From Candidatus Levyibacteriota bacterium (GTDB lineage: Bacteria; Patescibacteriota; Microgenomatia; Levybacterales; UBA12049), in contig JAJDCG010000001.1 of assembly GCA_029260965.1 (NCBI GenBank), forward strand, positions 445,803-509,802: a stretch of DNA of 64,000 bases, read 5' to 3'. Below, one piece after another: positions 5,029 through 48,357 of this stretch (position 1 is its first letter; the number at the start of each line of letters is the position of its first letter). The translations under genes and the position numbers were made by a program. The notes beneath the pieces were generated by a model. The model was not told the origin of the DNA. It was given only the letters and a program-made list of their open reading frames with translations, and did no database searches.

Positions 5029-5070
5029 CCCCCTGGATGTAGGCATAGGATGTAGGATGTAAGATCTTAT

Positions 5071-5147
5071 ATAAATCATAAATCATAAATCATAAATCAT
5101 AAATCATAAATCATAAATCATAAATCATAAATCATAAATCATAAATC
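5071..5147. repeat. perfect heptanucleotide microsatellite (ATAAATC)x11 in the GT4-GT4 intergenic region, preceded by GGATGTAGG x2
   Basis: Read directly: 11 tandem copies of ATAAATC at 5071-5147, ending 5 nt before the ATG at 5153. GGATGTAGG occurs twice at about 5034-5055. Confidence 0.9.
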
Positions 5148-5152
5148 TAATT

Positions 5153-6334: not shown

Positions 6335-6386
6335 CTGAGGATATATGATGTGAAAAATCATAAACAATAGGTTACAGCTCTAAATT

Positions 6387-6980: not shown

Positions 6981-6984
6981 ATTT

Positions 6985-7869
6985 ATGTTGCTTTCAATTA
7001 TTATAGTAAATTATAAAAAGCCTGAAATGACTTTTTCCTGCATAGACTCTATTTATTCAAATTTAGGCAAGGAAATTGGGGCGAGCATTGTGGAGGTTGT
7101 TTTGGTGGACAACGGATCAGATAAAAATGATCTGGGAAAACTCCGAAGCCTACTGGGTGAGAGAAAATATAAAAATTTCTCCCTCATAATAAATAAAGAG
7201 AATGGTGGTTTTTCAATTGGTTGTAATACGGGTGCCAAGTCTGCGAAGGGTGATTTGCTACTATTTCTTAATAATGATACTATCATTACAGATCGACGCC
7301 TCATGGACATGGCGTTTTTTCTCAATAATGGAGGGCATATTTCTATACTTGGTGGCAGCATGGTCAATGCCGATGGAACAGACCAGTCTTCATTTGGTAA
7401 GTTTTATACACCGTTTTATGTAGCACTTTTTATTTTGGGATTGGAACGTTTGGGAACGGTTAGTAAAAGTCCAAAGGATGTTAGCAAAGTTGATTGGGTT
7501 AAGGGAAGTTTGCTCATGGTAAAGCGAAAAGTTTTTGAGGAATTAAATGGTTTTGATGAGAAGATATTTATGTATATGGAAGACGTGGAGTTTTGTTATA
7601 GAGCAAAAAATGCCGGTTTTGATACTTATTTTTATCCATATATTTCAATAATACATAAAGATCAAGGATCATCAAGTAGGAGTTTTGCAGTGGTCAATAT
7701 ATATAAAAGCCTTTTATATTTCTACAAAAAACATAGAGGTGTTGTTGAGTATTGGTTTGTGAAATACGCTCTCATGGTAAAGGCATTAATTTTGATTATC
7801 GTTGGTAGAATAATCAGAAATTCTTATTTAATTACAACTTATGAAAAAGCTCTTGCAGTTGCACGATAA
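6985..7869 (+). CDS. GT2 glycosyltransferase (paralog of 13672..14583)
   Basis: MLLSIIIVNYKKPEMT, VDNGSDKND, FLNNDT, EDVEFCYRAKNAGF. Start set at the ATG at 6985; the track start 6943 would overlap the acetyltransferase. Confidence 0.75.
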   Translation: MLLSIIIVNYKKPEMTFSCIDSIYSNLGKEIGASIVEVVLVDNGSDKNDLGKLRSLLGERKYKNFSLIINKENGGFSIGCNTGAKSAKGDLLLFLNNDTIITDRRLMDMAFFLNNGGHISILGGSMVNADGTDQSSFGKFYTPFYVALFILGLERLGTVSKSPKDVSKVDWVKGSLLMVKRKVFEELNGFDEKIFMYMEDVEFCYRAKNAGFDTYFYPYISIIHKDQGSSSRSFAVVNIYKSLLYFYKKHRGVVEYWFVKYALMVKALILIIVGRIIRNSYLITTYEKALAVAR

Positions 7870-10800: not shown

Positions 10801-10885
10801 TGCCAAGAGAAGAGCTTCTGATGATGAGCCTGACAACATCCACATATTTAGATTTGACGAGATAGGAGATGTGTCTAGAATTTGA
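7841..10885 (+). CDS. 1014-aa polytopic membrane protein: N-terminal half O-antigen ligase/polymerase-like (Wzy_C), C-terminal half GT-C-like (PMT/ArnT-like) domain
   Basis: At least 20 hydrophobic segments. TAQRAAFVAYIIGSIF and TDNDYFRALGETGLFGLFSF resemble the WaaL/Wzy motifs SR(S/G)A and HNxYLxxLxExGxxG. The second half (FVADDFTWLRWAAED..., many TM segments, large C-terminal soluble region) is GT-C-like. The domain call for the second half is an inference. Confidence 0.55.
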   Translation: MKKLLQLHDKYTLKFLTAGLILFTVLYPKLPSINILNTWVYIRLEDFLILGTTIIWFIQLVRKKVTIFKPMLSVIGTYWLVGLVSLVFSIIFIAPQLPQLFPHVAVLSFFRRIEYMILFFIAFSTIRSKSDIKDYFVVLAVTVFLAFLYGIGQRYYIVLWSFFPHINQAQFCFPSFQTGNEEFAKGIPLCLPPGGRITSTFGGSYDLAAYTVLVLPIIFGTFLSIRQKLWKLLTGLVFLSGVILLVLTAQRAAFVAYIIGSIFTLILYKKKWWIIPLLVVSFSFLILFSESTAKRFLSTFRVTNVVVDQDGRLVGDASIDDEIDPITKTRRPKSGQDLPEGSAFLGLVQDEEIETDTALIERTLTPEEARRLRLESGSVQISTISGSFLVRKVLVYDISFTTRFQAEWPNAWRAFQRNPALGSGYSSITLATDNDYFRALGETGLFGLFSFMGVFVMLWVVFRKLVPLSGNSITAGFAYGLAGGVIGLLVNATLIDVFEASKVAEGLWILAGVAVGSLLLYQKKKISYSSEFIKTLTSNTAYIFYLILLILFIFLPTMSNYFVADDFTWLRWAAEDSLSGLPSHFINSQGFFYRPLDKIVTYFLYTVFSFQPHGYHFFLIFLHLIAIIGVYFFAKQITKDKLFAFLVSLIFAVHPTHAENVFWYSGLSSVLSAVFIIYAAICFYRFRERKSVFSYFLAFVLSIFAFSSYEIAVSIPFLFLVIDIFLFKATKKLKYYLPHVLFILLVPFYYLLRELTNTFQNGGDYSYNLIKIVPNVMGNILGYVGMFISGESFIPVYNLLRGSLRESAFSIGIVLTVSLAAIGFLFYINRSIMGKLLKNRMSGQIMFGIAFAFFSLLPFLPLGNIAPRYLYLSSVGFSISAVLIMYVLSRYKRFLLVLVVAVIVAIGAIQLDRASDRWKDAGYVTQNTLYFFRKNYDDLKPADKIYFVDTPVTYKGIWTFPTGLNDALWFIYRDDLPQVNLADSIEDAKRRASDDEPDNIHIFRFDEIGDVSRI

Positions 10886-10909
10886 GTCATAAAATGACAA
10901 GCAGAAAGT

Positions 10910-12352
10910 ATGGATTTTAGAAAAAACCTTCATTTTATTCTTTTGATTTTTATTTTTTTAGTTGGTTTCGTACTGAGGCTTTACAGGATTGATAATCCGA
11001 TAGCTGATTGGCATAGCTGGCGACAAGCTGACACCTCATCAGTATCAAGAGAGTTGTTGAAAAGTGATTTCGATTTCTTGCACCCCCGTTATCATGACCT
11101 CTCGAATGTGCCATCAGGCATGGATAATCCAGAAGGCTACCGAATGGTCGAGTTTCCTATCTATAATGCTGTTCAAGCGGGATTGTTTACCTTGTTGGGT
11201 GGATTTACAATCGAACAATGGGGGAGGATTGTTAGTATTTTTTCATCGGTTTTTGTTGCGATGTTTTTGTATTTGATAGTCAGCCGTCATAGCAATAAAA
11301 ACCTTGGTTTTCTCGCAGCTGCATTTTATTTACTCATCCCCTACAATATTTACTACAATAGGACAATTCTGCCCGATACGATGATGGCAATGGCCATACT
11401 TGGAGGAATATTTTTCTTCAATCTCTGGATTGAATCAGATAACAAAAAGCAACAAACAAAAAGCAGCAGAAGTTTTTATTTTTTACTTTCGATAATCTTT
11501 ACCTCATCGAGTTTTCTACTTAAACCGTATGCACTTTTATTTACCCTACCTATGATAGTTTTGGTTTATCAAAAGTGGGGTTTTAAAGCGATAAGAAAGT
11601 GGCAACTCTGGATTTTTACTGGCGTTTCTCTTTTGCCCTTATTTTTTTGGCGGCAGTGGATACTTCAATTCCCGACAGGAATCCCTGAAAATTTTTGGCT
11701 CTATAACGGTAATGGAATTCGTTTTCGTCCTGCATTTTTTCGCTGGATCGGATATGAGAGAGTAATCAAGCTAATTGGTGGTTATTTGGGATCAATTTTA
11801 CTTTTGTATGGTATTTTGAAACTAAAAGATCTGAAAGAGTGGATATTTTTCTTTTCATTTCTTGTAAGTAGTGGGCTTTATGTCATGATATTTGCAACTG
11901 GGAACGTGCAGCATGATTATTATCAGATTCTCATCATGCCAACTCTGTCAATTTTTTTTGCAATCGGTGCATACTTTTTATATAGATGGAATTTAACTGG
12001 AAAAGCAATATTATTTGTCGCTGTTGTTGGTATGTTTTATTTTGGTTGGGATCAGGTAAAGGACTATTTTAATATAAATAATCGATCAATTATAATAGCA
12101 GGTGAGGCCGTTGATAGGCTAACTCCCCAAGACGCTTTGGTAATTGCAGAGTATGGAGGAGACACATCGCTTCTTTATCAAACCAAACGTCGTGGTTGGG
12201 CAAGTCAGCAAAATTCAATCCCAGAGATGGTAGAAAAAGGTGCTTCGTATATGGTAATAGTTAATCCGCCTGATGAGGCAGTAAGCTTTGCTAAGCAGTA
12301 CAAGATAATTGAAAGTACTCCGCAATACGTTATTTTTGACATCCGTAAATAA
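10910..12352 (+). CDS. GT-C-fold polytopic membrane glycosyltransferase (PMT/ArnT-like)
   Basis: 480 aa with about 11 TM segments. N-terminal loop YRIDNPIADWHSWRQADTSSVSREL carries the acidic/aromatic motif seen in GT-C enzymes that use polyprenyl-P-sugar donors; soluble C-terminal domain. Family is inferred. Confidence 0.45.
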   Translation: MDFRKNLHFILLIFIFLVGFVLRLYRIDNPIADWHSWRQADTSSVSRELLKSDFDFLHPRYHDLSNVPSGMDNPEGYRMVEFPIYNAVQAGLFTLLGGFTIEQWGRIVSIFSSVFVAMFLYLIVSRHSNKNLGFLAAAFYLLIPYNIYYNRTILPDTMMAMAILGGIFFFNLWIESDNKKQQTKSSRSFYFLLSIIFTSSSFLLKPYALLFTLPMIVLVYQKWGFKAIRKWQLWIFTGVSLLPLFFWRQWILQFPTGIPENFWLYNGNGIRFRPAFFRWIGYERVIKLIGGYLGSILLLYGILKLKDLKEWIFFFSFLVSSGLYVMIFATGNVQHDYYQILIMPTLSIFFAIGAYFLYRWNLTGKAILFVAVVGMFYFGWDQVKDYFNINNRSIIIAGEAVDRLTPQDALVIAEYGGDTSLLYQTKRRGWASQQNSIPEMVEKGASYMVIVNPPDEAVSFAKQYKIIESTPQYVIFDIRK

Positions 12353-34475: not shown

Positions 34476-35483
34476 ATGGAGCGATTTCTCGGGCTTATTA
34501 TATCATCAGCAGTAATTACAGCTATCCTGCTTGTGCCATTTATTGATTTTCTCTACCGCATTAAGCTGAGGCGTGCAAATCAAACCACCAAAGATATTTT
34601 TAATAAAAGAACACCTATTTTTGATAAATATAATGCATGGAAGGTGGGAACTCCATTTGGCGGTGGCATATTGATTGTTCTTATTGTAACCATCTGGACA
34701 TTTTGGGCTTATGGTGTCTTTAATACCAGGGTTGTTCCATGGGAACTTTTTGTTATCTTCTTCTCATTTATAAGTTTTGGTCTGTTGGGATTTTATGACG
34801 ACTTCAAAAAATTGGTAGGAGGCAGTGAGGGATTTTTCGGTCTTAGATTCAGATATAAATTTATTATTCAGATAATACTTGCGCTTATTATCTCAACTGT
34901 TTTTTATTTTCAACTTGGTTATGATTTTATATTTATTCATGGTTTTGGGCAATTACCTCTAGGTTTTCTTTTCGTTCCATTTGGCGCACTTGTCATAGTT
35001 TCTTTTGTTAATGCATTCAATATTACAGATGGTTTAGATGGTTTGGCATCGGGTCTTTTTTTCATCTGCCTTGCTGCATTTCTGGTTATAAATTCTGCGC
35101 AAATTGACGAGTCACTGGGCATGTTTATATCTGTGATGATGGGATCAGTTATGGCGTTTTTATATTTTAATATTTATAAGGCTAGGATTTGGCTAGGAGA
35201 TGTAGGATCGCTTTCGCTTGGTGCAGCACTCGCTGTGATTGGTCTTCTGACTGGAAAGGTTTTGGCATTGGTAGTAATAGGCGGTGTGTTTGTAATTGAA
35301 GCAGGGTCATCTCTTATCCAGCTTCTTGGTAAGAAATATCTTGGTCGCAAGATTTTTCCTGCCGCACCGTTACATCTGTACTTGCAAAAAAGGGGTTGGG
35401 AGGAGCCCAAGATTGTTATGCGCGCTTGGCTCGCAGGATTTTTCCTGGCAATTTTAGGTATTTTTGTTGCGTTTATTAGATGA
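34476..35483 (+). CDS. mraY: phospho-N-acetylmuramoyl-pentapeptide transferase MraY
   Basis: NAFNITDGLDGLASG. 10 TM segments. Confidence 0.9.
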   Translation: MERFLGLIISSAVITAILLVPFIDFLYRIKLRRANQTTKDIFNKRTPIFDKYNAWKVGTPFGGGILIVLIVTIWTFWAYGVFNTRVVPWELFVIFFSFISFGLLGFYDDFKKLVGGSEGFFGLRFRYKFIIQIILALIISTVFYFQLGYDFIFIHGFGQLPLGFLFVPFGALVIVSFVNAFNITDGLDGLASGLFFICLAAFLVINSAQIDESLGMFISVMMGSVMAFLYFNIYKARIWLGDVGSLSLGAALAVIGLLTGKVLALVVIGGVFVIEAGSSLIQLLGKKYLGRKIFPAAPLHLYLQKRGWEEPKIVMRAWLAGFFLAILGIFVAFIR

Positions 35484-36550
35484 GAAAAATTGAGCTTGCC
35501 CACCTTGTTGTTTTGGTGCTTGTAACCCTTTTTGGGCTGCTTATGGTGTATGATTCCTCATCGGTTATTGCATTTGAACAATTTGGTGATAAATATAATT
35601 ACATAAAAGATCAGTTAGTATGGGCAATGATTGGTTATACTGGGTTCATATTTTTTTACTTTTTTGACTATCGCAAACTTTTTAACTTCGCATTACCCGC
35701 ACTTCTTGGTGCGTTAGTTCTGCTGTTTTTGGTTTTTATCCCTGGAATCGGATCGGAAGCTAAGGGTGCAAGTCGTTGGATAAATATCGCATCATTTAGG
35801 TTGCAGCCTGCAGAATTCGTAAAACTATCACTCGCTTTATATTTTGCAGCATGGTTTTCTCAAAAAGAAAAGGGTAGATTTCTGGCTTTTTCTCTTCTCC
35901 TTGGAGCCATACTTCTTCTCGTGATGTTGCAACCGGATATGGGAACCGCATCGATTATACTCGTTGAGGCGATAACTGTTTATTTTCTCTCAGGAGGAAG
36001 CCTTCTTTATTTTGCTGCTGCGATTCCCGTGATCTTAGGAGGAGGTTATTTGCTTATCAAATCAGCTCCATACAGAGCTGCGCGTCTTGCAAGTTTTTTG
36101 CAAGTTGATAGATCAATTGAGGATGCTTCATACCACGTACGCCAAATACTTATTGCTCTTGGGTCTGGTGGTTTATTTGGTTTGGGGGTTGGGAATTCGA
36201 TTCAAAAATATTCGTATCTCCCAGAAAGTGTGACTGATTCAATTTTTCCTATTATCGCAGAAGAATTTGGATTTGTAGGTTCTTTGATTTTGATCTTGGC
36301 ACTAATGTTTATTGTCTGGCGTGGGTTTTATATCGCTGCAACAGCGCGAGATAAATTTGGTAAACTTCTGGCTGGTGGAATTATGTCATTTATTGGTGCA
36401 CAAATTCTCATAAACCTGGCAGCTATGACGATCTTGCTTCCTCTGACAGGCGTGCCTCTTCCATTCATTTCCTATGGCGGATCAGCTCTCATCGTTAACC
36501 TCTCGGCAATGGGAATAGTCTTTAACATCTCTCGCCAATCTCATTATTAG
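35480..36550 (+). CDS. ftsW: SEDS-family peptidoglycan glycosyltransferase FtsW
   Basis: PDMGTASIILV and GxSRW motifs, 10 TM. Position between mraY and murG. Confidence 0.8.
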   Translation: MRKIELAHLVVLVLVTLFGLLMVYDSSSVIAFEQFGDKYNYIKDQLVWAMIGYTGFIFFYFFDYRKLFNFALPALLGALVLLFLVFIPGIGSEAKGASRWINIASFRLQPAEFVKLSLALYFAAWFSQKEKGRFLAFSLLLGAILLLVMLQPDMGTASIILVEAITVYFLSGGSLLYFAAAIPVILGGGYLLIKSAPYRAARLASFLQVDRSIEDASYHVRQILIALGSGGLFGLGVGNSIQKYSYLPESVTDSIFPIIAEEFGFVGSLILILALMFIVWRGFYIAATARDKFGKLLAGGIMSFIGAQILINLAAMTILLPLTGVPLPFISYGGSALIVNLSAMGIVFNISRQSHY

Positions 36551-36587
36551 ATTAGATAAACTCCTTCTCAGTTGATATAATCCAAGT

Positions 36588-37127
36588 ATGAAGTTGTTGA
36601 TTGTTGCAGGGGGTGGGGGGCATTTTGCCCCAGCACTCTCCGTTATAGAAAAGCTCCCCAAAGATTGGGATTTGCTTCTTGTTGGGCGCAAGTACTCGTT
36701 GGAGGGGGATGCAGCACTGTCCCTAGAGTACCAGACTGCTGAGCGGATGCATATACCTTTTCGCATGCTTACAACTGGTAGGATACAACGGAAGCTTACA
36801 CGTCATAGTTTACTTTCTCTTCTCAAGACTCCCATTGGTATGGTTCAGGCCTTGAGCATATTGAGAGATTTCAAACCCGACGTCGTTTTGTCATTTGGAG
36901 GATATGTTGCAGTACCATTGGTTCTTGCTGCGCATTTTTTGAGAATTCCTATCATTATTCATGAGCAGACATTTGGTGCAGGACTTGCCAATAAAATTTC
37001 CAGCCGTTTCGCTGACAAAGTTTGTATATCTTGGGAGGAGTCTCGTAAATATTTTCCTAACGGGAAAGTTGTGGTAACAGGAAATCCTGTTCGAAAATTT
37101 CAAATTTCAAATTTCAAATTTCAGTAG
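36588..37127 (+). CDS. murG: murG N-terminal segment; frame ends inside an (AAATTTC)x4 repeat
   Basis: MKLLIVAGGGGHFAPALSV (G-loop 1), IIIHEQTFGAGLANK, VVTGNPVRKFQISNFKFQ*. The same gene continues in another frame. Confidence 0.8.
   Translation: MKLLIVAGGGGHFAPALSVIEKLPKDWDLLLVGRKYSLEGDAALSLEYQTAERMHIPFRMLTTGRIQRKLTRHSLLSLLKTPIGMVQALSILRDFKPDVVLSFGGYVAVPLVLAAHFLRIPIIIHEQTFGAGLANKISSRFADKVCISWEESRKYFPNGKVVVTGNPVRKFQISNFKFQ
37095..37122. repeat. heptanucleotide tandem repeat (AAATTTC)x4 at the murG frameshift
   Basis: Read directly: tcga + 4 x aaatttc + ag + tag. Confidence 0.9.
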
Positions 37128-37129
37128 AC

Positions 37130-37690
37130 CTGCCACTTCTTTATGTAACAGGGGGGAGTGCCGGGGCGCATGGAGTTAATGTTCTTATCGAGGGGTGTCT
37201 AGAAGTGCTCCTTAAAAATTACAATATTATTCACCAGACAGGTGATGCACAAGAGTTTAAAGATTTTGATCGACTTAAAAACCTGAAAAACACATTGCCG
37301 AAAGATTTGCAAGAAAGGTATTTTTTAACAAAATTTGTAGACCCACAGGATATTTCAGGAATTTTGGAAAAAGCGGATCTTGTGATAAGTCGTTCGGGGA
37401 TAAATACGGTAACTGAAATCCTTTATTTTGGAAAACCATGCATTTTGATACCACTTCCTCATAGTCAGGCTCAAGAGCAAGAGATAAATGCTAGATTTGT
37501 TCAGGATCAAGGTCTTGGATTGGTGGCAGATCAGGGTAGCTTAAATCCAGAAAAATTAACAGCCATTATCCAGACGGTTTCAGGAAATCTTGATAAGTAT
37601 AAGAAAGCTGCAAAAAAGACGAAAAGTTTAATCAAAGAGGATGCATCTGATAGGATTATAAGTGTTGTTAAAAAATGCGTGAAAAAATAA
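37130..37690 (+). CDS. murG: murG C-terminal segment (frame +2 relative to the N-terminal segment); the frame is open from 37130 and the track lists it from 37205
   Basis: The frame upstream of the track ORF reads VDLPLLYVTGGSAGAHGVNVLIEGCLEVLLK..., i.e. the conserved second G-loop GGSxGA of the MurG C-domain. Confidence 0.75.
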   Translation: MPLLYVTGGSAGAHGVNVLIEGCLEVLLKNYNIIHQTGDAQEFKDFDRLKNLKNTLPKDLQERYFLTKFVDPQDISGILEKADLVISRSGINTVTEILYFGKPCILIPLPHSQAQEQEINARFVQDQGLGLVADQGSLNPEKLTAIIQTVSGNLDKYKKAAKKTKSLIKEDASDRIISVVKKCVKK

Positions 37691-38109
37691 AAAGAAAAAA
37701 AAATTTAAGAAAAAATCAAAAATTCGAAAAAGTATTTATTATTATTGTTGTTGTCGTATCAATCGTTTTGGGAATAGGTAGCTTTTTTTTATTTCAACAA
37801 ATTAACAGTAGTTATAAATACCTCAGTCCCCTTGCAAACAGTTCTTCGATGACAGATGAATCAAGAGAAGTTAAAAAAAGTCAGGTAGAAGAATTGCTTT
37901 TGAAACAAAAAATAAAGTTTGATAGTGTGTCTGCATCAAGTAGCGCGATAATTGTGCAGTTTGAGGATGATTCTGTCGCGATTTTGTCAACTAAAAAAGA
38001 GATGAAAAAACAAATATCCTCTTTACAATTCATACTTACTAGGCTTACAATGGAAGGTAGGTCGTTTACACGACTTGATATGCGTTTTGACAAGCCAGTC
38101 ATACGTTAG
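37675..38109 (+). CDS. ftsQ: short FtsQ/DivIB-like bitopic protein (tentative)
   Basis: Basic N-terminus, one TM, small extracytoplasmic domain. Position between murG and ftsA. Weak sequence evidence. Confidence 0.4.
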   Translation: MREKIKRKKNLRKNQKFEKVFIIIVVVVSIVLGIGSFFLFQQINSSYKYLSPLANSSSMTDESREVKKSQVEELLLKQKIKFDSVSASSSAIIVQFEDDSVAILSTKKEMKKQISSLQFILTRLTMEGRSFTRLDMRFDKPVIR

Positions 38110-38119
38110 TTTTTTTGTT

Positions 38120-39421
38120 ATGAATGATGGAAAAATAATAGTCGGAATTGACGTTGGGACGTACAAGATAGTAACTGTAATAGCACGAGTAACAGAGGAT
38201 TCTATCAATGTGCTTGGTGCATCTGAAGTCAAATCACAGGGAATTAAAAGAGGCCAGGTAGTTGACATTGAAGAAGCGGTAGTTGCTATAAATAATTCAC
38301 TGGAAGGTGCGGAGCGAATGGCTGGATATAGTGCTTCGCATGTAATTGTATCCTTGAGTGGTTCACAAATTGAATGTCAAAATTCTCGTGGGGTTGTGGC
38401 TGTCTCGACGCCAGAGGGTGAAATAACAAGTGCAGATCTAGCGCGGGTAATAGATGCTGCAAAAGCCGTATCTGTCCCATCTACTCGTGAGATAATTCAT
38501 GTTCTTCCCAGGAGTTTCATAGTTGATGGCCAGGAAGGCATCAAAGATCCTGTTGGGATGTCAGGAACTAGACTTGAGGTTGATACCCATATCATTACTG
38601 CAAATAGTGTCTCAATCCGCAATCTGGAAAAGGCTTTTTCAGAGGTGGGTGTTGATGTTGATAGTTTTTCTCACTCAGGTTATGCCAGTTCTCTTGCAAC
38701 ACTTTCCGATACTGAGCGTGAGCTTGGGGTAGTATTGGTTGATATGGGAGCTGGAACTACAGATATTTCTATATATGTTGATGGGTCTGTTGCCTATTCA
38801 TCAGTACTCGCAATAGGCGCGCGTCACGTTACAAATGATTTGGCTATAGGGCTGAGGATCTCGATTGAGTCAGCTGAGAGAATAAAGCTTTTCCTGTCAG
38901 AGGCTACCTCAGGTAGAAAAGTAATTCGCGTTGGGGATGAAAAAGAAGATGAAGAGGGTCATCAATCAAATCCTGATGAGATAGATCTTACATCTTTAAA
39001 TCTTTCAGAAGAGATACGTAAAGTCTCAAAAAAAACTTTAGTAGAAGGCATTATCAGGCCTAGGCTAAATGAGATTTGTACGATGATAGGTATGGAGATC
39101 AGAAAATCAGGTTTTGGAGGACAGACGCCTGCTGGGGTTGTGATAACGGGTGGGGGTGCACTCACGGTTGGTATCAAGGAGGCAGCGCGTCGTACTCTAG
39201 CTATGCCAGTGAGGATAGGTGTTCCGACTGAGGTAAAAGGTATTATTGACGAGGTGCAGCATCCTGCATTTTCGACAAGCATCGGTCTTATCCGTTACGG
39301 TGCCAGTAACGTTAGGGCTTCCAAATCTTCTTTCCACTTGCCAATTCCTGGTGTATCCAAACTCGGCGGACAGAAATTTTTCAAAAAAGTTCTCAACCTC
39401 ATAAAATCATTTATACCTTAG
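38120..39421 (+). CDS. ftsA: cell division protein FtsA
   Basis: [30 protein letters not shown], actin-fold motifs [24 protein letters not shown]. Confidence 0.9.
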
Positions 39422-39491
39422 ATTTTCCTATATTTTTCTCTATTGCATTTGGTATCCACATCTGGTAGGATTTGGTCAAACTAAACACTAT

Positions 39492-40670
39492 ATGTTAATT
39501 CGTCCTCAATCAACAAATTCTGCCAAAATAAGAGTTGTCGGTATTGGCGGTGGGGGTACCAATGCGATTAATTCTATGATTGCCAATAGTTCCATAAGTG
39601 GTGTTGATTTCGTCGCTATCAACACAGACTCCCAAGCACTTCTTTTGAACAAAGCCGATTCCAAAATCCAAATAGGTGAGAATATTACCAAGGGTCTCGG
39701 ATCAGGAGGAGATCCAGAGATGGGAAGACAAGCAGCTGAAGAATCAGCAGAAAAAATAAAGAATATGCTTGAGGGATCAGACATGGTTTTTCTCACAGCA
39801 GGTATGGGTGGAGGAACAGGGACAGGAGCAACATCTGTTGTCGCCAGCATTGCAAAGGAAATAGGAGCACTGACAGTAGTTGTTGTAACCAAGCCGTTTC
39901 TTTTTGAAGGGACTCGTCGCATGGTTACAGCAGAAGAAGGTCTGGAGAGTCTTAAGGACAAAGCAGACACACTCATAGTTATTCCTAACCAGAGAATATT
40001 AGATGTGGTGGACCGTAAGCTCTCGCTTCTGGATGCATTCAAAGTGGCTGATAGCGTACTTACACAGGGAGTTCAGGGAATATCAGAAATAATTACACAA
40101 CCAGGACTTATAAATGTTGATTTTGCTGACGTACGCACGATTATGTCTGATGCTGGATCATCATTGATGGGGATTGGGTCTGGAATTGGTGAGAACAGAG
40201 CAGAATCAGCAGCGCGTGCAGCTATTTCAAGTCCGCTACTTGAGCTTTCTATGGATGGAGCTCGTGGGGTTCTTTTCAACATAGTCGGTGGTGAGGATCT
40301 AACCATGACAGAGGTTGATGAGGCAGCAAAGATTATTTCCAATGCAGCAGATCCAGATGCAAATATTATATTTGGTGCAACTATTGACGAGACCATGCAT
40401 GACCAGATCCGCATCACGGTGGTGGCAACTGGATTTGACCAGAACAAACAGCGACTGCAACAGTTCATGGTAGAACAGCCTGATCCACAGGTAGTCAGAA
40501 ATCAACAGGGAGCAAATCAAAACCAGAACCCATCCCAACAGGCAGTAGGTGAAAATGGGTCATCTGAGGATCAGGATTCTGGTAATAATGGAGATCCAGT
40601 AGTTACTAAAAAAGAAGAAAGCACAGAAGACGATTGGGACATCCCCGCATTCCTGAGGCAAAGGAATTAG
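39492..40670 (+). CDS. ftsZ: cell division GTPase FtsZ
   Basis: [28 protein letters not shown]; C-terminal tail [10 protein letters not shown]. Confidence 0.95.
40641..40670. repeat. left copy (ftsZ 3' end) of an imperfect 30-bp direct repeat; partner at 44283..44312
   Basis: atccccgcattcctgaggcaaaggaattag versus atccccgcatttctaagacagagaaattga: 23/30 identical. Both encode IPAFLRQRN*. Confidence 0.85.
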
Positions 40671-41647
40671 CTTAGTTCTTCAATCAGGCTTTTGTGCCCC
40701 AAGCTTATCCAATATTCTGTTTCTTTAGTATCGTTCCTGTTTATATACTTTTCTTGGTAACCTCCGAGGAGCTCCATTGCAACACCAGCTACTGTGTAAT
40801 CGTATAGCCATTTTCGTTCCTGTGGAGTTAATTTATTAAATTTATCATACTCATTTGCTATTAGCTCTATGCGGCTTCTCAGTGTCATTACGCTATTGTC
40901 ATCATGCATGAGATTTGCTGCTATTACTGCAATTTCTTGAATTCGTGGATACCAGTTAGCTACAGAAAAATCTAAAATATAAATATCTCCTTTTTTGCTC
41001 TTCAAGACATTCGCTTTTGTAAAATCTCCATGGACAAATGCATGTGGTAAATCGTCAGCGGGGATTGACTTATATCTTTTTATTGTTTGTTCTACGAGAG
41101 GTATGTCTTCTGGTTTTAAGTATTGTTTTGTTTTATCAAACAGTATTTGAATATTTGGGATTGCCCAACTATCGAAAATATATGTTGGTTTGTAGTCAAT
41201 TTTATTCACTTTTGCAGCTTGTTCAATAATTGATTTTCTTTCTTCATTATTTGGGGGACGATTTAGCTCAAAAAAAGTATTCCCATCTATATAATCCATT
41301 AATATAAGATTTAATCCGTTTGCTTGTTTGTCCGAATAAACAATACCACCATCGTGTTTTTGGAGGAGAGATGGGTGATTAACTCCAGAGGCGATTGCCC
41401 GTTCCATGATGGTGGTGTATCGATCTATATCCTCTGGAGTTCTGTCTTTCTGAAAGATTTTTGCTAGGTATTTATCTTTCCCTACATATATTATGACATT
41501 GCAGTCTTCATATCCAACTTCAATAACAGAAAAATCATCAGGTATTCCTATCGTATACGCTTTACTAAGTCTGTTGATAACTGGTTTGAGGTCTCCTGAA
41601 TAATTAAGTCTATTTATAGGCGTTCTTTTATTAATTTTTCCTGTCAT
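40667..41647 (-). CDS. phosphotransferase (APH/choline-kinase-like) family kinase
   Basis: YLAKIF (beta3 Lys), [12 protein letters not shown] (Brenner HGDxxxxN catalytic loop), [10 protein letters not shown] (metal-binding D). Confidence 0.7.
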
Positions 41648-44282
41648 AGTGTAATTATATCAAGATATACTTAAATTATCTAACGGGAAGACATTTGTTA
41701 TAATTAATCCGATGAAGAATAACATTTTATATATCCTAACAGGGAGGTCGTCTACTGGGAAATGATGCTACTCACCCAGACCCGAGTGATGAAGGCGTAT
41801 CAATGGAGGAGGCAAGGGACGTAATACAATTTTTAGATTATTTAACTGAATATCTTTTTGACCTTCCCAAAAGGATTACTGATTATAGAAACCGATCGGA
41901 AAGAGAATAAAAATATCTCATAATAAATTAGCTAGCCTTGAGAGAATTTTAATCTATATAATTTAGCCTCAAATATATGTCGTACTAGCTCCATTATGCG
42001 ACATAAATTAGGAATGCGAATAAATACTTTGTTTACAATATTACTTCTGAAAAGAGACAGCAATGATGATATAATTTGCTAAATGTCCATACAGAAACAA
42101 GTAAAAATAAATAATGCTAGCGTAGAGCAAGCTGGCTTATCAAGAGATTTTTCAGCAGACATAGCGGAATTCATTTGGAATGGATTCGATGCAGGAGCAA
42201 GTGAGGTAAGAATTGCTTATATAATAAATGAAATTAAAGGGGTAGAATCTTTATCTATTGAAGATAACGGAGAGGGAATTGATTACTCTACAATAGAGAA
42301 AACGTTTGGAATTTTATTAGACTCAAGTAAGAGTTCTCTTGCGGGATCATCATCATACGTTCACGGCAAAAGAGGAATTGGGCGTTTTTCTTTTAAGTAT
42401 TTTGCTCACATTGCAGAATGGATTAGTGTTTTCAAAAAGGATAATAAAAAATATCGTTTTTCTATTAAAATCTCAGCAGACAATAAAGAAAAGTATTCTA
42501 TATCAGATGATCTGGAAGATGTTAAAGATGTTGACATTTCTACCGGATGCAGGGTGAACTTTTCAGTTCTTAACGATTCTTCCGTTAATGAGTTAGTCAC
42601 CCCTTCATTCATTGAATCATTGAGGAGAGAATTCGGTTGGTATCTTCATCTGAATAAAGAACGAGGGTTTAAGCTGTTTATAAATGATAAGGTTTTGGAC
42701 TATGAATCAAGCATTATAGATAGTGACGAAAAGAAGGTAAAAATATCTCATGGTAAAGAATCCTATATCTTTGGCTTAAATTATATTGAATGGAAGAAGA
42801 ATACAGGAGATGATTATTATTATAATTATTTTCTAGACACAAACTATATAGAAAAAGGCAAAAAAACAACCTCGTTCAATAAAAATGGGATTAATTTTCA
42901 TCATAGCGTTTATATAGTTAGTAGTTTTTTTGAAAATTACAGTCCATCATCAAACAAGCAGGAAAATAAAAGTAGTTTGTTTGAAGACGATTTTATTTTT
43001 AAGGAGCTTAATAAGGAGCTGCACCTTTTCTTACAAGAAAAACAAAAGAAATTTATAAATAGAAATGCGGAAATTTTAATACAGGAGCTTGAACAGGAAA
43101 AAGTTTTCCCTGAATTTGAAAATAATGAATTAGGAGAAGACAGAAAAAGAGAATTTGTTAACTTAACAAAATCACTTTATCGTTTAGAGCCAAAGTTATT
43201 TATAAAGGTGAGCCCCTTACAAAAAAGATCGTTTCTTTCTTTTCTAAAACTTTCGATTGACTCAAATGAAAGAGAAAATGTAGTAAAAATTATTGAATCT
43301 ATTGTTGATATGACAGCAGAAGAAAGGGCAGAGCTTGCAAAAATATTGCAAGTTACAACTTTAAGCAATATAGTTTATGTTATGAAAGATATTGTAGGTA
43401 GAATAAAAAATGTAGAAATACTTAAAAGCCTAGTTAATGATTTTGAAAAGTATACTAACGAAAGAGATAATATTCAAAAAATAATGGAGAAATGTTTCTG
43501 GTTATTTGGAGAACAATATACTGTTGTTTCATCAGACAAGAGTTTTACCTCGGCTTTGCAGAAATATTACATAGACATATTGAATGAAGATTTATCTCAT
43601 GAATTAAAATTATCTCTAGATCATAAGGATAGTAAAAAAAGACCAGACCTATTCCTTTGCAGGCAATATCCCCTCACCCAGACGCCTACACGCCTTTCTG
43701 AAGACAATATAATTATAGAATTAAAAAGACCAAGTGTAGATATAGGCATTACTCAAATGAGGCAATTAGAGGATTATATGGATTTTATAGTTAAGAGTTC
43801 AAATTTTAGTGGCACAATTCGCAACTGGAAATTTTATATTGTTGGTAAAAATTTAACAGGTGAGGTACAAGCTCGTGTTGATGAGAATAAAAATAAAGGA
43901 GAAGAGCAATTTCTTTATCTAAGAATAAAGAATTTTGCTATATATGCATTGAATTGGGATGATTTATTCCAGTCATTTAAGTTAAAAGCTGGATTTATCC
44001 TTAGCAAACTAGATATAAAAACAGAAGTGATAATTGATGAATTAAAAAAGGAGAATATATCGCCGGCAGGCATGCCTGATTATTTGACAAAAATAGTATC
44101 TAATGAGAAATCTGTTTCTTCTCCTCCCGCAAATCCTATGTAATTAGTGTTCGGATAGTTTAGTATTGACTTAGATGTTTTTCTCTGTTAAATTCTACTT
44201 GTACTTTGATGACATAGAAAGGCTATTTATTCAAAGGTGCTTTTTGGAAAACCTGAAGCGAGACATGGGGTTTGTCTATAAA
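40671..44282. mobile_element. putative integrated accessory segment (about 3.6 kb) between the two ftsZ-3'-end repeats; carries the APH-like kinase and the GHKL-nuclease gene; no integrase present
   Basis: Flanking imperfect direct repeat of the 3' end of a protein-coding gene. Accessory-type cargo. Removing the segment gives a convergent ftsZ -> <- HK arrangement. Confidence 0.4.
42083..44143 (+). CDS. 686-aa fusion protein: N-terminal GHKL (Bergerat-fold, MORC/MutL-like) ATPase, helical middle region, C-terminal PD-(D/E)xK nuclease-like domain
   Basis: ADIAEFIWNGFDAGASEVRI (motif I, ExxxNxxDA), IEDNGEGIDYSTIEKTFG (motif II, DNGxG), HGKRGIGRFS (motif III, GxxGxG). C-terminus: KKRPDLFLCRQ...NIIIELKRPSV...QMRQLEDY (D...ExK...Q). 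Confidence 0.65.
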   Translation: MSIQKQVKINNASVEQAGLSRDFSADIAEFIWNGFDAGASEVRIAYIINEIKGVESLSIEDNGEGIDYSTIEKTFGILLDSSKSSLAGSSSYVHGKRGIGRFSFKYFAHIAEWISVFKKDNKKYRFSIKISADNKEKYSISDDLEDVKDVDISTGCRVNFSVLNDSSVNELVTPSFIESLRREFGWYLHLNKERGFKLFINDKVLDYESSIIDSDEKKVKISHGKESYIFGLNYIEWKKNTGDDYYYNYFLDTNYIEKGKKTTSFNKNGINFHHSVYIVSSFFENYSPSSNKQENKSSLFEDDFIFKELNKELHLFLQEKQKKFINRNAEILIQELEQEKVFPEFENNELGEDRKREFVNLTKSLYRLEPKLFIKVSPLQKRSFLSFLKLSIDSNERENVVKIIESIVDMTAEERAELAKILQVTTLSNIVYVMKDIVGRIKNVEILKSLVNDFEKYTNERDNIQKIMEKCFWLFGEQYTVVSSDKSFTSALQKYYIDILNEDLSHELKLSLDHKDSKKRPDLFLCRQYPLTQTPTRLSEDNIIIELKRPSVDIGITQMRQLEDYMDFIVKSSNFSGTIRNWKFYIVGKNLTGEVQARVDENKNKGEEQFLYLRIKNFAIYALNWDDLFQSFKLKAGFILSKLDIKTEVIIDELKKENISPAGMPDYLTKIVSNEKSVSSPPANPM

Positions 44283-44312
44283 ATCCCCGCATTTCTAAGA
44301 CAGAGAAATTGA
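44265..44312 (+). CDS. 15-codon mini-[18 protein letters not shown] whose last 9 codons and stop copy the FtsZ C-terminal tail; probably the displaced original ftsZ 3' end
   Basis: Read directly. Could be a non-expressed att-like remnant. Confidence 0.25.
   Translation: MGFVYKIPAFLRQRN
44283..44312. repeat. right copy of the imperfect 30-bp ftsZ-3'-end direct repeat
   Basis: See 40641..40670. Confidence 0.85.
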
Positions 44313-44315
44313 GCT

Positions 44316-45443
44316 TTACTTCCCCCGGGGTTTTTTGGTGATAGGGAGTTCTATTGTGAATGTCGATCCTGCTCCTTCACGGCTTTGGATTTTTATATTT
44401 CCACGATGTGCCTTTATTATTTGTGACGTGATATAGAGCCCGACACCCAGGCCTTTGTGTCCGTTGGCATTTCCACGTTCAAATCTTTCAAAAATCCGTT
44501 CCTTTTCATCTGTAGGTATACCTATTCCCTGATCAATAACTGTAATATACGCATTTGATCTACGTTTTTCAGTTCTTATTTCAATGGGTTTCCCCTCGCC
44601 ATATTTGATTGCGTTTGCGAGCAGGTTGCTTATAGCTTGTTCAATTCTTAGTTTGTCCCAGTAGCCATTGATTGGTCCCTTGATATCCAATTTTATTTTA
44701 TATCCATCATGTTTGATTTTTTCACTAAATCTATCTGCTACATCTTTGGTTAGTTTCGCAATGTCAATTTCTTCCTTTTCCAGGCTCAGCTTGCCTGTTG
44801 TGATGAGAGAGACGTTGAGAAGATCGCTTATCATACGTGAGAGACGAAGCGATTGTTGCTCAGTGCTTTCAAGCATTTTCATCAGCTTGGCAACGGAGAA
44901 ATTGGCAAGTGAGACACTTTTTATATTATGTAGCGCAGTCTGGAGCTGGAGGAGCATAGCTGAGAGCGGTGTTTTGAGTTCATGGGAAGCGATAGATAGG
45001 AATTCATCTCTGGCCTGGATTTCTTTTTTGTCTTTTATTTTTTCAGCCTGAAGCTTCTCGATTAGTGCTAGATTTTCCTTCTCTCTTTTTTTGAATGCAG
45101 CGGATTCATTCGTATTTGCTAGTTTGTCGATTAAGAGGCAGGTAATGTAACCAGCAATTATAAAAATTACAGTCCGTACCAAAAATACCGCGAAGCTGGA
45201 AGAAGAGTTATTTGGGAAAAAGAAAAAGTAGTATGAGCCAAGCGTGATGAGTATTATGCTAAAGATTCCAGCGCGTATTCCCCTTAGATAAGCAGCAATC
45301 ACTATTGCCAGGAAGTTGAAAGCAAAAAAATTATCTCCAGTAATTGGTAAAAAAGCCCATGTAAGACCAATTGAAGCAATACCTATGAATGTTGCAACTC
45401 CATAAGTATTGAAAAAATTACGTACGTTTTCTTTACTTATCAT
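44316..45443 (-). CDS. sensor histidine kinase (membrane-anchored, HisKA + HATPase_c); no response regulator nearby
   Basis: ASHELKTPLSAM (H-box), LLANAIKYGEG (N-box), DQGIGIP (G1), GLGVGLYI (G2); N-terminal TM bundle. Start set at MISKEN so that it does not overlap ileS. Confidence 0.8.
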   Translation of the reverse strand: MISKENVRNFFNTYGVATFIGIASIGLTWAFLPITGDNFFAFNFLAIVIAAYLRGIRAGIFSIILITLGSYYFFFFPNNSSSSFAVFLVRTVIFIIAGYITCLLIDKLANTNESAAFKKREKENLALIEKLQAEKIKDKKEIQARDEFLSIASHELKTPLSAMLLQLQTALHNIKSVSLANFSVAKLMKMLESTEQQSLRLSRMISDLLNVSLITTGKLSLEKEEIDIAKLTKDVADRFSEKIKHDGYKIKLDIKGPINGYWDKLRIEQAISNLLANAIKYGEGKPIEIRTEKRRSNAYITVIDQGIGIPTDEKERIFERFERGNANGHKGLGVGLYITSQIIKAHRGNIKIQSREGAGSTFTIELPITKKPRGK

Positions 45444-45534
45444 ACGTTTATTGATATCCACAATATAGCACAAATACCCTAAAAGTCCAGTAGTGAGCTT
45501 GAATAAATTGGGAATTTGAACTAGAATTAAGCAT

Positions 45535-48357
45535 ATGTTCAAGCCGGTAAAAAGCGCTGTTAACTTTCCAGAGCAGGAGGAAAAACTGATAAAATTTTGG
45601 AAAAAAAATAAGATTTTTGAAAAATCAGTTGAAAAAGATGCGCCAAATGGTTCGTGGACTTTTCTGGACGGACCGCCTTTTGTAACAGGTATGCCTCATT
45701 ATGGATCGCTTTTATCCAGTCTTCCAAAAGATTTATTTGGTAGGTATTTTACCATGAAGGGATATAGTGTCAGGCGTGTTTGGGGATGGGATGGACACGG
45801 ACTTCCAATTGAAAACAAAGTTGAGCAGGAACTTGAAATTCAAAGTAAAAAAGATATCGAAGAAGTGGTAAGTGTTAAGAAGTTTATTGATGAGTGCAAG
45901 CATTATGTAAATATGGTTTCAAGTGACTGGGAATGGTATGTGGATAGGATTGGCAGATGGGTAGATTTCAAAAATGCATATAAAACTTGGGACAGAGATT
46001 ATATGGAGTCTGTGATGTGGGTTTTTAAACAAATGTATGACAAGGGATTTGTGTACAAGGGGCTTCGGGTTTCACTTTATTGTCCTCATTGCGTAACGCC
46101 AATTTCTAATTTTGAAGTTGCGATGGATTCAGATAATTACAAAGATGCACTTGATCCATCTACAATTTACAAATATGAGCTGGAAGGCGAAAAAGATACT
46201 TACATCCTTGCATGGTCAACAACTCCCTGGAATAAAATAGCAACACCAGCTCTTGCTGTTAATCCCAAAATGAAGTACGTGAAAGTTAAGCAGGGAAAGG
46301 AATTTTATGTTTTGGCTGAGACGACACAAAAAGCGCTTGATGGGGAATCTGAAATCGTTGGGAGATTAACAGGTAAAGATCTAGTTGGTAAAAAATTTGT
46401 TCCGCATTATGATTATTACAAAAATCGTGCAAAAGGAAAAGTATTTGAAATATTGGGAGGAGATTTTGTGACTGCTGAGGAGGGAACAGGTGTTGTGACA
46501 ATTGCTGCTTATGGTGAAGAAGATATGAAGCTGATGAAAGAAGAAGGGGTTCACACTGAGCTTCATCTTGATGAGGAAGGACATGTTAAAGAAGACGTGC
46601 CTATTTTTGGCGGAATGTATTATCTCAAAGCCAACAAGGCAGTTGATGAAGATCTTGAAAAGCGTGGTCTTATTTATAAAAAAGTTGATTATACTCACCG
46701 GGTTCCTCTTTGTTGGAGATGTCACACTAGGCTTTACTATGCGCCAATTGATGCATGGTTTGTAAATGTTCAGGATCTCAAGCCTCTGATGAAAAAAACA
46801 AACTCTGATATTGGTTGGTACCCAAAGCATTTTAAAAATGGAAGATTTTTAAAAAGTTTGGAAAATGCGCCTGATTGGAATATTTCTCGCAATAGATACT
46901 GGGGTTCTCCTGTTCCTGTTTGGGAATGTGAGTGCGGGGAGAGATTTGTTCCTGGATCCATAAAAGAACTCGAGGATGCATCAGGCAGAAAAGTGACCGA
47001 GCTTCACAAGCCTGATATTGATGAGGTAATGGTTAAGTGTAAGAAGTGTGGTAAGGATGCAAAGCGAGTAAGTGAGGTTTTGGATAGTTGGATTGAGGCA
47101 GGATCTGCTTCTTTTGCAGAGCGACATTTTCCGTTTAAAAAGGATGAAAAACTAGATGATTTTTTTCCTCCTGATTTTATTGCTGAATATACGGGTCAGA
47201 TCAGAGCTTGGTTTTATGTACTTCATGTGATTGGCGCTGCGATTTATAAATCTCCTTCATTTAAAAATGTTTTGGTCGAGGGTGTGATACTTGGAACAGA
47301 TGGCAGAAAAATGAGTAAGAATTTTAAAAATTATCCAGATCCTCGAGAAATGCTTGATAAGTACGGCGGAGATGCGTTGAGGTTCTATCTGCTTGGTTCA
47401 CCCGTGATGAAGGGTGAGGATATCTTGATTTCAGAGGATGCGTACAAATCCCAAATAAGAGGAACCATGCTTATTCTTTGGAATACATATAATTTTTTTG
47501 TAACTTATGCCAATTTGGACGCTTGGCATCAGGCAAAAAACATCAAGCAAAAAGAAATAAGTAAAAACATTTTGGATATTTGGGTTTTAGCGTTGCTAAA
47601 TAATTTAATTTCTGATGTGACAAAAAGCTTAGATAATTATGATACAGTAACGGCAATTGAATCGATAAAAAAATTCGTTGATGATTTTTCAACTTGGTAT
47701 GTTAGAAGAAGTAGGAACAGGGTTGGGCCAAGCGCAACTGATCAAGATGATAAAGATGCATTTTATTCTACCTCTTTTGAGGCATTAACTACTCTTTGTA
47801 AATTGCTTGCGCCAATTGCGCCTTTTATATCTGATTCAATTTATAAAAATTTGACAGAGGAAGAATCAGTGCATTTAGCTGATTGGCCTTTGTCAAACTC
47901 AAAACTTACAACACAAAACTCAAAACTGATTAATGATATGAAAATGGTTAGAAAAATTGTTGAGATGGGATTGTCCGTTAGAAAAGATGCAGGTATAAGA
48001 GTAAAACAACCACTCTCAAGCCTTACTGTTTTGGGTACAGATGAATCTATACTAGATGAAGCTTTGCATTTTCTTATAAAAGATGAGGTTAATGTAAAAG
48101 ATGTAAAATTTGAAAAAGCAAAAGAGTTAAAAGTTGATCTAGATACAAAAATAACACCAATTCTTGAAGCAGAAGGAAAAGCGCGTGATATTATCAGAAT
48201 GATTCAGGAAGAGAGGAAAATGCTTAGTACTGCACTTGATGAAAAGGTGGATGTATTTTTGCCTGAATGGCCCGTTATGTGTGAAGAAGAAATAAAAAGA
48301 AAAGCGCTTATAAATGAATTGTTAAATGGAGACTTTAAAGTCAAAAGATTGTCATGA
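45535..48357 (+). CDS. ileS: isoleucine--tRNA ligase (type 2-like)
   Basis: PPFVTGMPHYGS (HIGH-region variant), GWDGHGLPIE, DWNISRNRYWGSPVPVW, RKMSKNFKN (KMSKS). 940 aa. Confidence 0.8.
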   Translation: MFKPVKSAVNFPEQEEKLIKFWKKNKIFEKSVEKDAPNGSWTFLDGPPFVTGMPHYGSLLSSLPKDLFGRYFTMKGYSVRRVWGWDGHGLPIENKVEQELEIQSKKDIEEVVSVKKFIDECKHYVNMVSSDWEWYVDRIGRWVDFKNAYKTWDRDYMESVMWVFKQMYDKGFVYKGLRVSLYCPHCVTPISNFEVAMDSDNYKDALDPSTIYKYELEGEKDTYILAWSTTPWNKIATPALAVNPKMKYVKVKQGKEFYVLAETTQKALDGESEIVGRLTGKDLVGKKFVPHYDYYKNRAKGKVFEILGGDFVTAEEGTGVVTIAAYGEEDMKLMKEEGVHTELHLDEEGHVKEDVPIFGGMYYLKANKAVDEDLEKRGLIYKKVDYTHRVPLCWRCHTRLYYAPIDAWFVNVQDLKPLMKKTNSDIGWYPKHFKNGRFLKSLENAPDWNISRNRYWGSPVPVWECECGERFVPGSIKELEDASGRKVTELHKPDIDEVMVKCKKCGKDAKRVSEVLDSWIEAGSASFAERHFPFKKDEKLDDFFPPDFIAEYTGQIRAWFYVLHVIGAAIYKSPSFKNVLVEGVILGTDGRKMSKNFKNYPDPREMLDKYGGDALRFYLLGSPVMKGEDILISEDAYKSQIRGTMLILWNTYNFFVTYANLDAWHQAKNIKQKEISKNILDIWVLALLNNLISDVTKSLDNYDTVTAIESIKKFVDDFSTWYVRRSRNRVGPSATDQDDKDAFYSTSFEALTTLCKLLAPIAPFISDSIYKNLTEEESVHLADWPLSNSKLTTQNSKLINDMKMVRKIVEMGLSVRKDAGIRVKQPLSSLTVLGTDESILDEALHFLIKDEVNVKDVKFEKAKELKVDLDTKITPILEAEGKARDIIRMIQEERKMLSTALDEKVDVFLPEWPVMCEEEIKRKALINELLNGDFKVKRLS

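Follow-up and report, generated by a model that had tools for sequence, protein, structure and literature searches.

Within a 64,000-nucleotide (nt) stretch of a Candidatus Levyibacteriota genome (GenBank assembly GCA_029260965.1, contig JAJDCG010000001.1, positions 445,803 to 509,802 of the forward strand; hereafter the window, whose own numbering we use throughout), the gene murG, which is essential for lipid II synthesis, appears in two pieces. Judging from comparison with an independent assembly and with related genomes, murG is broken here only by a tandem array in its inter-domain linker that carries four 7-nt units instead of five. An otherwise identical contig holds five units and an intact murG, and 7-nt arrays recur at this same linker site in murG genes across the Levybacteria.

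The array, a perfect (AAATTTC)x4.1 at 37095-37123 (period 7, 100% matches), was called by Tandem Repeats Finder (TRF) and can also be read directly in the sequence. Upstream, a listed open reading frame (ORF) of 179 aa encoding the MurG N domain (36588..37127, +) ends in the repeat-encoded peptide KFQISNFKFQ (...GNPVRKFQISNFKFQ*) at a TAG stop (37125..37127, +), bases that the five-unit allele reads through within GTA GAC. Translation places the C domain at 37130..37690 (+; stop TAA 37688-37690), beginning VDLPLLYVTGGSAGA... and including the G-loop GGSAGA at 37151-37168. Since codons start at positions 0 mod 3 in the N frame and 2 mod 3 in the C frame, the C domain lies in the -1 (equivalently +2) frame, and a gain of 7 nt or a loss of 14 nt at the array restores the frame. 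An earlier note on this stretch had put the break exactly within a heptanucleotide array and the C domain, with its GGSAGA loop, in the +2 frame from 37130; the TRF call, the ORF end and the frame arithmetic bear out the first statement, and the translation and a PF04101 match the second.

Evaluating the two pieces for MurG identity, we found that the N ORF matches the MurG N-domain family PF03033 (E=1e-28) and, more weakly, the Alg14 family PF08660 (E=2e-7), and that the frame from 37130 matches PF04101 (E=2e-31) over profile positions 2-165 of 166. The best PDB matches are the MurG entries 7d1i, 3s2u and 1f0k. A 41-sequence alignment gave the invariant columns G10 G11 H12, G104 G105 Y106 and H125 E126 Q127 in the N domain, where the GGxGGH, GGY and HEQ motifs are present, and T190 G191 G192 S193 G195 in the C domain, where the GGS.G donor loop is present. 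Among the listed C-domain ORFs that open with a canonical start, the longest (GTG; 161 aa, 37205..37690, +) lacks the GGSAGA donor-binding loop, and between the upstream stop of the C frame and 37205 there is no ATG, GTG or TTG, only ATT (37097, 37118) and CTG (37130). Both the 179-aa N product (P0123) and the 161-aa C product (P0199) are recorded from one 549,591-bp NCBI contig; exact look-ups of the 179-aa N ORF, FtsW, the 161-aa C ORF and MurA returned no match, the N and C ORFs nonetheless being in the protein collection.

Chance is ruled out as the origin of the murG array by 200 first-order Markov shuffles of the window, which yielded zero perfect arrays of period at least 6 and at least 3 copies, against two in the real sequence, both of period 7 (37095-37123 and 5071-5147). 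No further AAANTTC-type arrays were found when sought in the window.

An exact look-up of the window's FtsZ returned one Logan contig, SRR15505512_300956 (23,350 bp), which carries murG as a single intact 369-aa gene, with both domains on one polypeptide as they are not in the window. A literature search on the underlying run, SRR15505512, gave no result. Over 11,150 nt this contig equals window 34499-45641 with 0 mismatches and one 7-nt gap, which is one additional AAATTTC (5.1 units vs 4.1), and it encodes residue for residue the repaired protein that the earlier note had written out (...KFQISNFKFQISVDLPLLYVTGGSAGA...). The prediction in that note that a fifth copy would restore the frame is thus realised in an independent contig as well as by arithmetic. 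A second contig from the same run equals window 5119-12334 (7,216 nt) with zero differences, so that across both contigs and 18,366 compared bases the sole difference is the murG unit count, with no homopolymer or other indel.

Logan contigs are built with k=31, and it agrees with such a graph that the second contig begins 29 nt inside the perfect 77-nt (ATAAATC) array of the window. A 29-nt run, the length of the four-unit array, cannot yield purely periodic 31-mers, so the 36-nt five-unit run needs real five-unit reads. On this argument five-unit molecules are real, and with the intact five-unit allele occurring in the same population the organism is not deficient in murG.

Because an intact allele exists, murG is not a fixed pseudogene. 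We give almost no credence to the idea that the lineage has lost MurG and peptidoglycan synthesis: the deposited assembly does carry a broken murG, as such a loss would require, but both halves are otherwise undamaged and keep all invariant MurG residues, mraY, ftsW, ftsA and ftsZ are intact, and an identical population with the intact gene contradicts it.

Frame arithmetic allows two repairs, to five units or to two, and the earlier note had held that either would give a linker of plausible length. To compare them, we aligned the five-unit reconstruction with 40 homologues, revealing that the repeat-encoded peptide fills the gap between the invariant TGNP and YxTGGS motifs at the length seen in relatives. 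The GNP-to-TGGS spacing is 29 residues with five units and 30 in relatives of the array type, and its minimum among the 120 closest homologues is 28. A two-unit gene is in frame, yet its spacing of 22 residues falls below that of all 120 homologues, which rejects the two-unit half of the claim and argues that five units would be the functional state. The fused five-unit form contains the peptides FQISNFK/FQISVDLPLLYVTGGSAGAHGVNVLIEGCLEVLLK, and near-identical linker peptides occur in relatives (P0011 KFQISNFKFQIYNEN, P0044 KFQISNSKFQIPNDN, P0010 KFPISNFQFPISNEK); the arrays of P0011, P0010 and L147, (AAATTTC)x4.7, are all in frame. In an AlphaFold model (mean pLDDT, the predicted local distance difference test score, 88.9), residues 164-185 form a coil (pLDDT ~73) that runs from the final strand of the N domain to the first of the C domain, and HMMER alignments to the MurG structures 7d1i and 3s2u likewise place the repeat peptide in the inter-domain linker.

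Comparing related murG genes for the repeat and its copy number, as the earlier note had advised, we surveyed 80 genome loci and 80 metagenome loci encoding MurG relatives, and the array recurs at the same linker site across the Levybacteria. In 158 of 159 loci both domains are read in one frame; the remaining locus, L123, is broken inside the C domain and not in the linker. TRF detected arrays in 44 of 138 Levybacteria linkers (period 7 in 37, period 14 in 5, period 21 in 2), against 1 period-7 match in 546 control windows of equal size taken from these murG genes. When only perfect arrays of at least 2.5 units are counted, 16 of 134 linkers have one and no control does. Across 1.02 Mb of Levybacteria DNA there are 12 perfect arrays of period at least 6, all of period 7, and 10 of the 12 lie in the murG linker. 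Behind the GNPxR motif the linker arrays share their starting codon, and they reach 31-36 nt, about five units.

The repeated unit itself differs by lineage: AAATTTC in the window and L147, AAAGTTC in L011, GAAATTC in L036 and L120, AATTTTC in L042, L113 and L125, AGTTCAC in L091 and AAAGTCG in L064, among others. Outside the array, the MurG sequences of carriers are only 47-66% identical, and the arrays of their nearest neighbours are often degenerate or interrupted; lineage-specific units at this level of identity imply that each array was homogenised within its own lineage. Such repeated spreading of point changes through all units of a lineage reads, at the level of sequence, as the signature of ongoing slippage and homogenisation. 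Peptides encoded by different units are dissimilar (KFQISNF, KVQSSKF, FEIRNSK, KVESRKS), so the periodicity would be a property of the DNA. Two other causes that we considered for the repeat were rejected: protein-level selection, since the different units encode dissimilar peptides, and an array of sequence-specific binding sites, since the units differ between lineages and encode such dissimilar peptides.

Some linkers depart from the simple heptanucleotide pattern. In L022, L046, L132 and L016 there are arrays perfect at period 14, made of two alternating 7-mers (e.g., AATTCAAAGTTCAA x2.5), which suggests two-unit duplication steps. GC-rich palindromes replace the middle of the array in many species (L001, L010, L012, L033, L034, L039, L045, L049, L095 and L130), examples being TCCGCCAGCTGGCGGA and CCTGCC-GGCAA-GGCAGG, and are translated as Pro/Ala/Gly/Ser loops; perfect stems of at least 7 bp occur in 14% of linkers vs 3.3% of control windows. 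Linkers of other species carry the peptide motifs VIASKAKQS...ARNDEK and SRLRGNDK, which we take to be typical translations of small palindromic repeat elements. Besides the window's 5071-5147 array, the only perfect period-7 array outside a murG linker is (AGTTCAA)x4.6 at positions 1298-1329 of L029, another Levybacteria genome, where it lies in frame in a membrane-protein ORF upstream of murG; its unit is a rotation of AAAGTTC, the murG unit of L011.

A search of the protein collection using only the N ORF recovered two further products that are truncated and finish in repeat-encoded peptide. The first is P0135 (172 aa; GCA_016204475.1, locus L165), which falls in one 90% cluster with P0192 (GCA_964613075.1, locus L166), an intact protein of 378 aa. 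With 3 units, the murG of L165 is split into 172 + 194 aa, whereas L166 has 5 units (GAATTTA GAATTAA GAATTAT GAATTAA GAATTAA vs GAATTTA GAATTAA GAATTAA in L165) and an intact gene. Across 6.5 kb only two differences separate these loci: a single-nucleotide polymorphism (position 104) and, within the array, a gap of 14 nt, a step like those suggested by the period-14 linkers. The exact direct repeat here is only 13 nt, so junction k-mers of at least 21 would need reads and the 14-nt deletion should not be a de Bruijn collapse. The second product, P0133 (ENA contig L164), has GAAATTC x3.9 against x4.9 in the 97%-identical L036 and L120, a difference of -7 nt; on the same contig an in-frame TGA splits ftsW (256-1320) into 131 + 201 aa, and the contig is either of low quality or from a lineage with two damaged cell-wall genes.

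Other candidates did not hold as array breaks: L167 has a coverage of 1.6 and unrelated sequence upstream of the array, L168 (GCA_009772455.1 WNFI01496810.1, 2037-3115) has lost about 55 aa inside the N domain (PDVVVGF|FPKEK), L123 carries its frameshift inside the C domain, and P0132, P0148 and P0196 are truncated simply because the read or contig stops there. Additional split genes may be represented by P0203, P0206 and P0217, ORFs that comprise the C domain only. No in-frame variants of +/-7 aa were found within the 90% clusters.

We propose that the linker array gains and loses 7-nt units by slipped-strand mispairing, a mechanism that we infer, that five units would be the functional state, and that the window holds a four-unit allele. 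Loss of one unit would shift the frame by -1 and stop translation at TAG 37125-37127 after the N domain; with no canonical start for the C domain upstream of the GGSAGA loop, little or no functional MurG would then come from the four-unit allele. On whether the four-unit version is a genuine slipped-strand allele co-existing in cells with the five-unit one, we find ourselves evenly divided. Speaking for it are the precedent of L165 and L166, the 549-kb contig, the lack of any other indel in 18 kb and the resolution of a perfect 7-mer array of 77 nt in another part of the window, from which it follows that the source assembly could span a 36-nt array.

The competing explanation, that all cells carry five units and that the assembler or polishing dropped one, we regard as quite possible while leaning against it. 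The unit count being the only difference in 18,366 bases, the five-unit run stemming by the k=31 argument from real reads, and the essentiality of murG together with in-frame arrays everywhere else in the survey are all as this explanation would have them, and in multi-k assemblers, whose smallest k is about 21, a 36-nt run of period 7 would make a cycle at that first step. Yet the same assembly resolved the 77-nt array and built the 549-kb contig, implying a final k or read length far above 36 nt and good coverage; the absence of other indels means that it is not error-prone; and L165 and L166, if not a k-mer collapse, indicate that real unit-number alleles occur at the linker site. The earlier note had offered assembly collapse and slipped-strand variation side by side, and both stay in play, jointly taking most of the probability.

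Several observations weigh against a real four-unit allele made by slippage. A knockout of an essential gene at consensus frequency is hard to reconcile with a natural population, all other perfect arrays surveyed are in frame as part of the 158 of 159 loci with a shared N and C frame, and five units is short for high slippage rates. Length variation was found neither among three near-identical members of the P0011 cluster nor between L036 and L120. Five units in an independent, otherwise identical assembly is also what an assembly miscount predicts, and L164, a short contig of probably low coverage with an ftsW nonsense codon, is weak evidence.

The array also contains a formal -1 slippery heptamer, A_AAT_TTC (37109..37115, +; codons TCA AAT TTC), in X_XXY_YYZ phase with the N frame, and slippage on A_AAU_UUC would yield a 367-aa MurG from the four-unit allele. 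The heptamer is correctly phased 9 nt ahead of the 0-frame stop, and the -1 frame runs into the C domain (...KFQISNF-QISVDLPLLYVTGGSAGA), yet we consider programmed -1 frameshifting exceedingly unlikely. A structured RNA stimulator was rejected, as folding of the 100 nt downstream is no stronger than in shuffles (z -0.46, or -1.15 with the array included; minimum free energy vs 200 shuffles), and reading the upstream sequence for a Shine-Dalgarno-like (SD-like) stimulator gave a sole AGGA, whose distance to the heptamer of about 27 nt is too great for the dnaX type. Any array of at least three 7-nt units puts one unit in slippery phase, making the heptamer a by-product of the repeat, and the relatives' units AAAGTTC, AGTTCAC and AAAGTCG are off the X_XXY_YYZ pattern and all in frame at the linker. 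For heptamers that lack a stimulator, frameshifting in E. coli reached at most 10x a 0.055% background (PMC4066793). With the intact five-unit allele, recoding is needless to explain MurG production. The recoding that the earlier note had included among its explanations is thus disfavoured and programmed frameshifting unsupported, trace rescue by slippage being possible. Known -1 frameshift sites of the dnaX and IS911/IS3 type share with murG the phased heptamer, closely followed by a 0-frame stop, and a functional domain encoded in the -1 frame, but at murG no hairpin, pseudoknot or SD-like element was detected, the shift is not conserved in relatives and an unshifted allele exists.

A further alternative is that the four-unit allele is tolerated because the N and C domains assemble as separate polypeptides into an active MurG in the manner of the Alg14/Alg13 heterodimer, which we judge very unlikely in the window. 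The break does fall in the coil linker between two Rossmann domains, by the model and the PDB alignments, and the N ORF matches the Alg14 family; the C-domain ORF of L165 restarts at a TTG 20 nt past the N-ORF stop and includes the whole C domain. In the window, however, the C frame has no canonical start before GGSAGA and the first, the GTG at 37205, removes the loop, so that a functional two-piece enzyme is unlikely, and no split murG occurs among the 159 surveyed loci. A split bacterial MurG is not known from any experiment to be active. Eukaryotic Alg14 resembles the N part of MurG and Alg13 the C part, with split and fused forms both natural, including bacterial EpsE/EpsF (PMC8993221), where the division likewise falls between an N acceptor/membrane domain and a C UDP-N-acetylglucosamine domain (PMC8993221, PMC9527342). 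Unlike the window's C domain, those are stable, separately initiated genes, and the fused MurG is the norm in the clade.

Turning to slippage in known systems, we compared murG with simple sequence repeat (SSR) contingency loci, among them the Haemophilus influenzae lipopolysaccharide tetranucleotides, the 7-bp hmw1A/hmw2A repeats and the phasomes of Neisseria and Campylobacter (PMC2651432, PMC8262952, PMC5084427). Like them, murG has a non-triplet tandem unit inside its ORF, one unit more or less switches it between in-frame and truncated, and unit number differs between near-identical genomes (4 vs 5; 3 vs 5; 3.9 vs 4.9). Unlike them, it is an essential housekeeping enzyme and not a surface or restriction-modification gene, and it has a short array of five units, which lies in an inter-domain linker and is kept across a phylum with lineage-specific units in a host of the Candidate Phyla Radiation (CPR). 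The mechanism may be that of SSR contingency loci, and murG could be a contingency locus; the joint frame of the two domains in 158 of 159 loci speaks for on as the normal state. A literature search joining CPR or Patescibacteria with phase-variation or repeat terms found no paper.

Tandem-repeat assembly errors in metagenome-assembled genomes (MAGs) offer a second comparison, since two otherwise identical assemblies here differ only in repeat copy number; against the likeness, the murG array of 29-36 nt is far below the resolved 77-nt array, and in the parallel case of L165 and L166 the exact repeat of 13 nt is too short for k-mer collapse. In Mycobacterium tuberculosis, glpK is an example of a reversible homopolymer frameshift. 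For that species reversible frameshifts in homopolymer tracts of growth-relevant genes are described (PMC10334774). As at murG, the slippage tract lies in a core metabolic or growth gene and the off state would slow or stop growth rather than alter a surface antigen; the murG unit is 7 nt rather than a homopolymer, and it is for the M. tuberculosis tracts that reversibility has been experimentally proven.

For annotation, murG of the window should be neither scored as a pseudogene nor read as evidence of an absent cell wall, the repair being a single 7-nt unit, and at the linker MAG pipelines will go on calling murG losses that are false or misleading. There is nothing remarkable in the break as such. 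Of interest are that the repeat site has persisted throughout the phylum, which gives an essential cell-wall gene a frameshift-prone microsatellite at one fixed site, with a homogenised unit particular to each lineage, and that out-of-frame alleles recur in three independent assemblies, a combination unusual for bacterial coding microsatellites. The locus lets read-level data ask whether CPR bacteria use core-gene slippage or merely tolerate it. Improbable in our judgement is that murG is a true slippage switch in Levybacteria, turning peptidoglycan reversibly off or toggling between fused and Alg14/Alg13-like split forms, possibly with leaky -1 rescue on A_AAU_UUC. If so, the array would be kept for switching and would generate non-growing or wall-altered subpopulations of episymbiotic cells.

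Viewed in its surroundings, murG occupies its expected position in the division and cell wall (dcw) cluster, between ftsW and the ftsQ/ftsA/ftsZ slot, in the gene order mraY-ftsW-murG-(144 aa)-ftsA-ftsZ. Its neighbours are whole, as the earlier note had stated: mraY (34476-35483, +; PF00953 in the identical Logan locus), ftsW (35480-36550, +; PF01098) and, at 37675..40670 (+), a 144-aa ORF overlapping the murG stop followed by ftsA and ftsZ (ORFs, with Pfam on the identical Logan locus). The 144-aa ORF (37675-38109) sits in the ftsQ slot without a significant Pfam match (weak BAG, E=0.007), as do its counterparts in L165, L166 and L168. The window has a G+C content of about 37%, its closest genomes are Candidatus Levyibacteriota MAGs (Microgenomates, CPR), and the best homologues of the repaired MurG are only about 61% identical.

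The second perfect 7-mer array of the window, (ATAAATC)x11 at 5071..5147 (+; TRF), had been cited by the earlier note as a sign that such tracts are a feature of the genome; it is present and perfect, but intergenic and not coding, ending 5 nt before the ATG of a glycosyltransferase family 4 (GT4) gene. This complete GT4 gene (5153-6334) heads a surface-glycan cluster with a hexapeptide transferase, a GT2, a 1014-aa Wzy_C-like protein and a PMT_2. Upstream of the perfect array lies a degenerate (GGATGTA)x4.6 array at 5035-5065, and the repeats of 5035-5147 are a candidate promoter or 5'-untranslated-region repeat controlling the glycan locus. Preceding both arrays, a 191-aa ORF (4453-5028) comprises the GT4 N domain only (PF13439, profile positions 3-166 of 170) and ends ...RVVRPGI* with its stop exactly at the GT4 N/C domain boundary, a second GT-B enzyme cut at a domain boundary beside 7-nt arrays.

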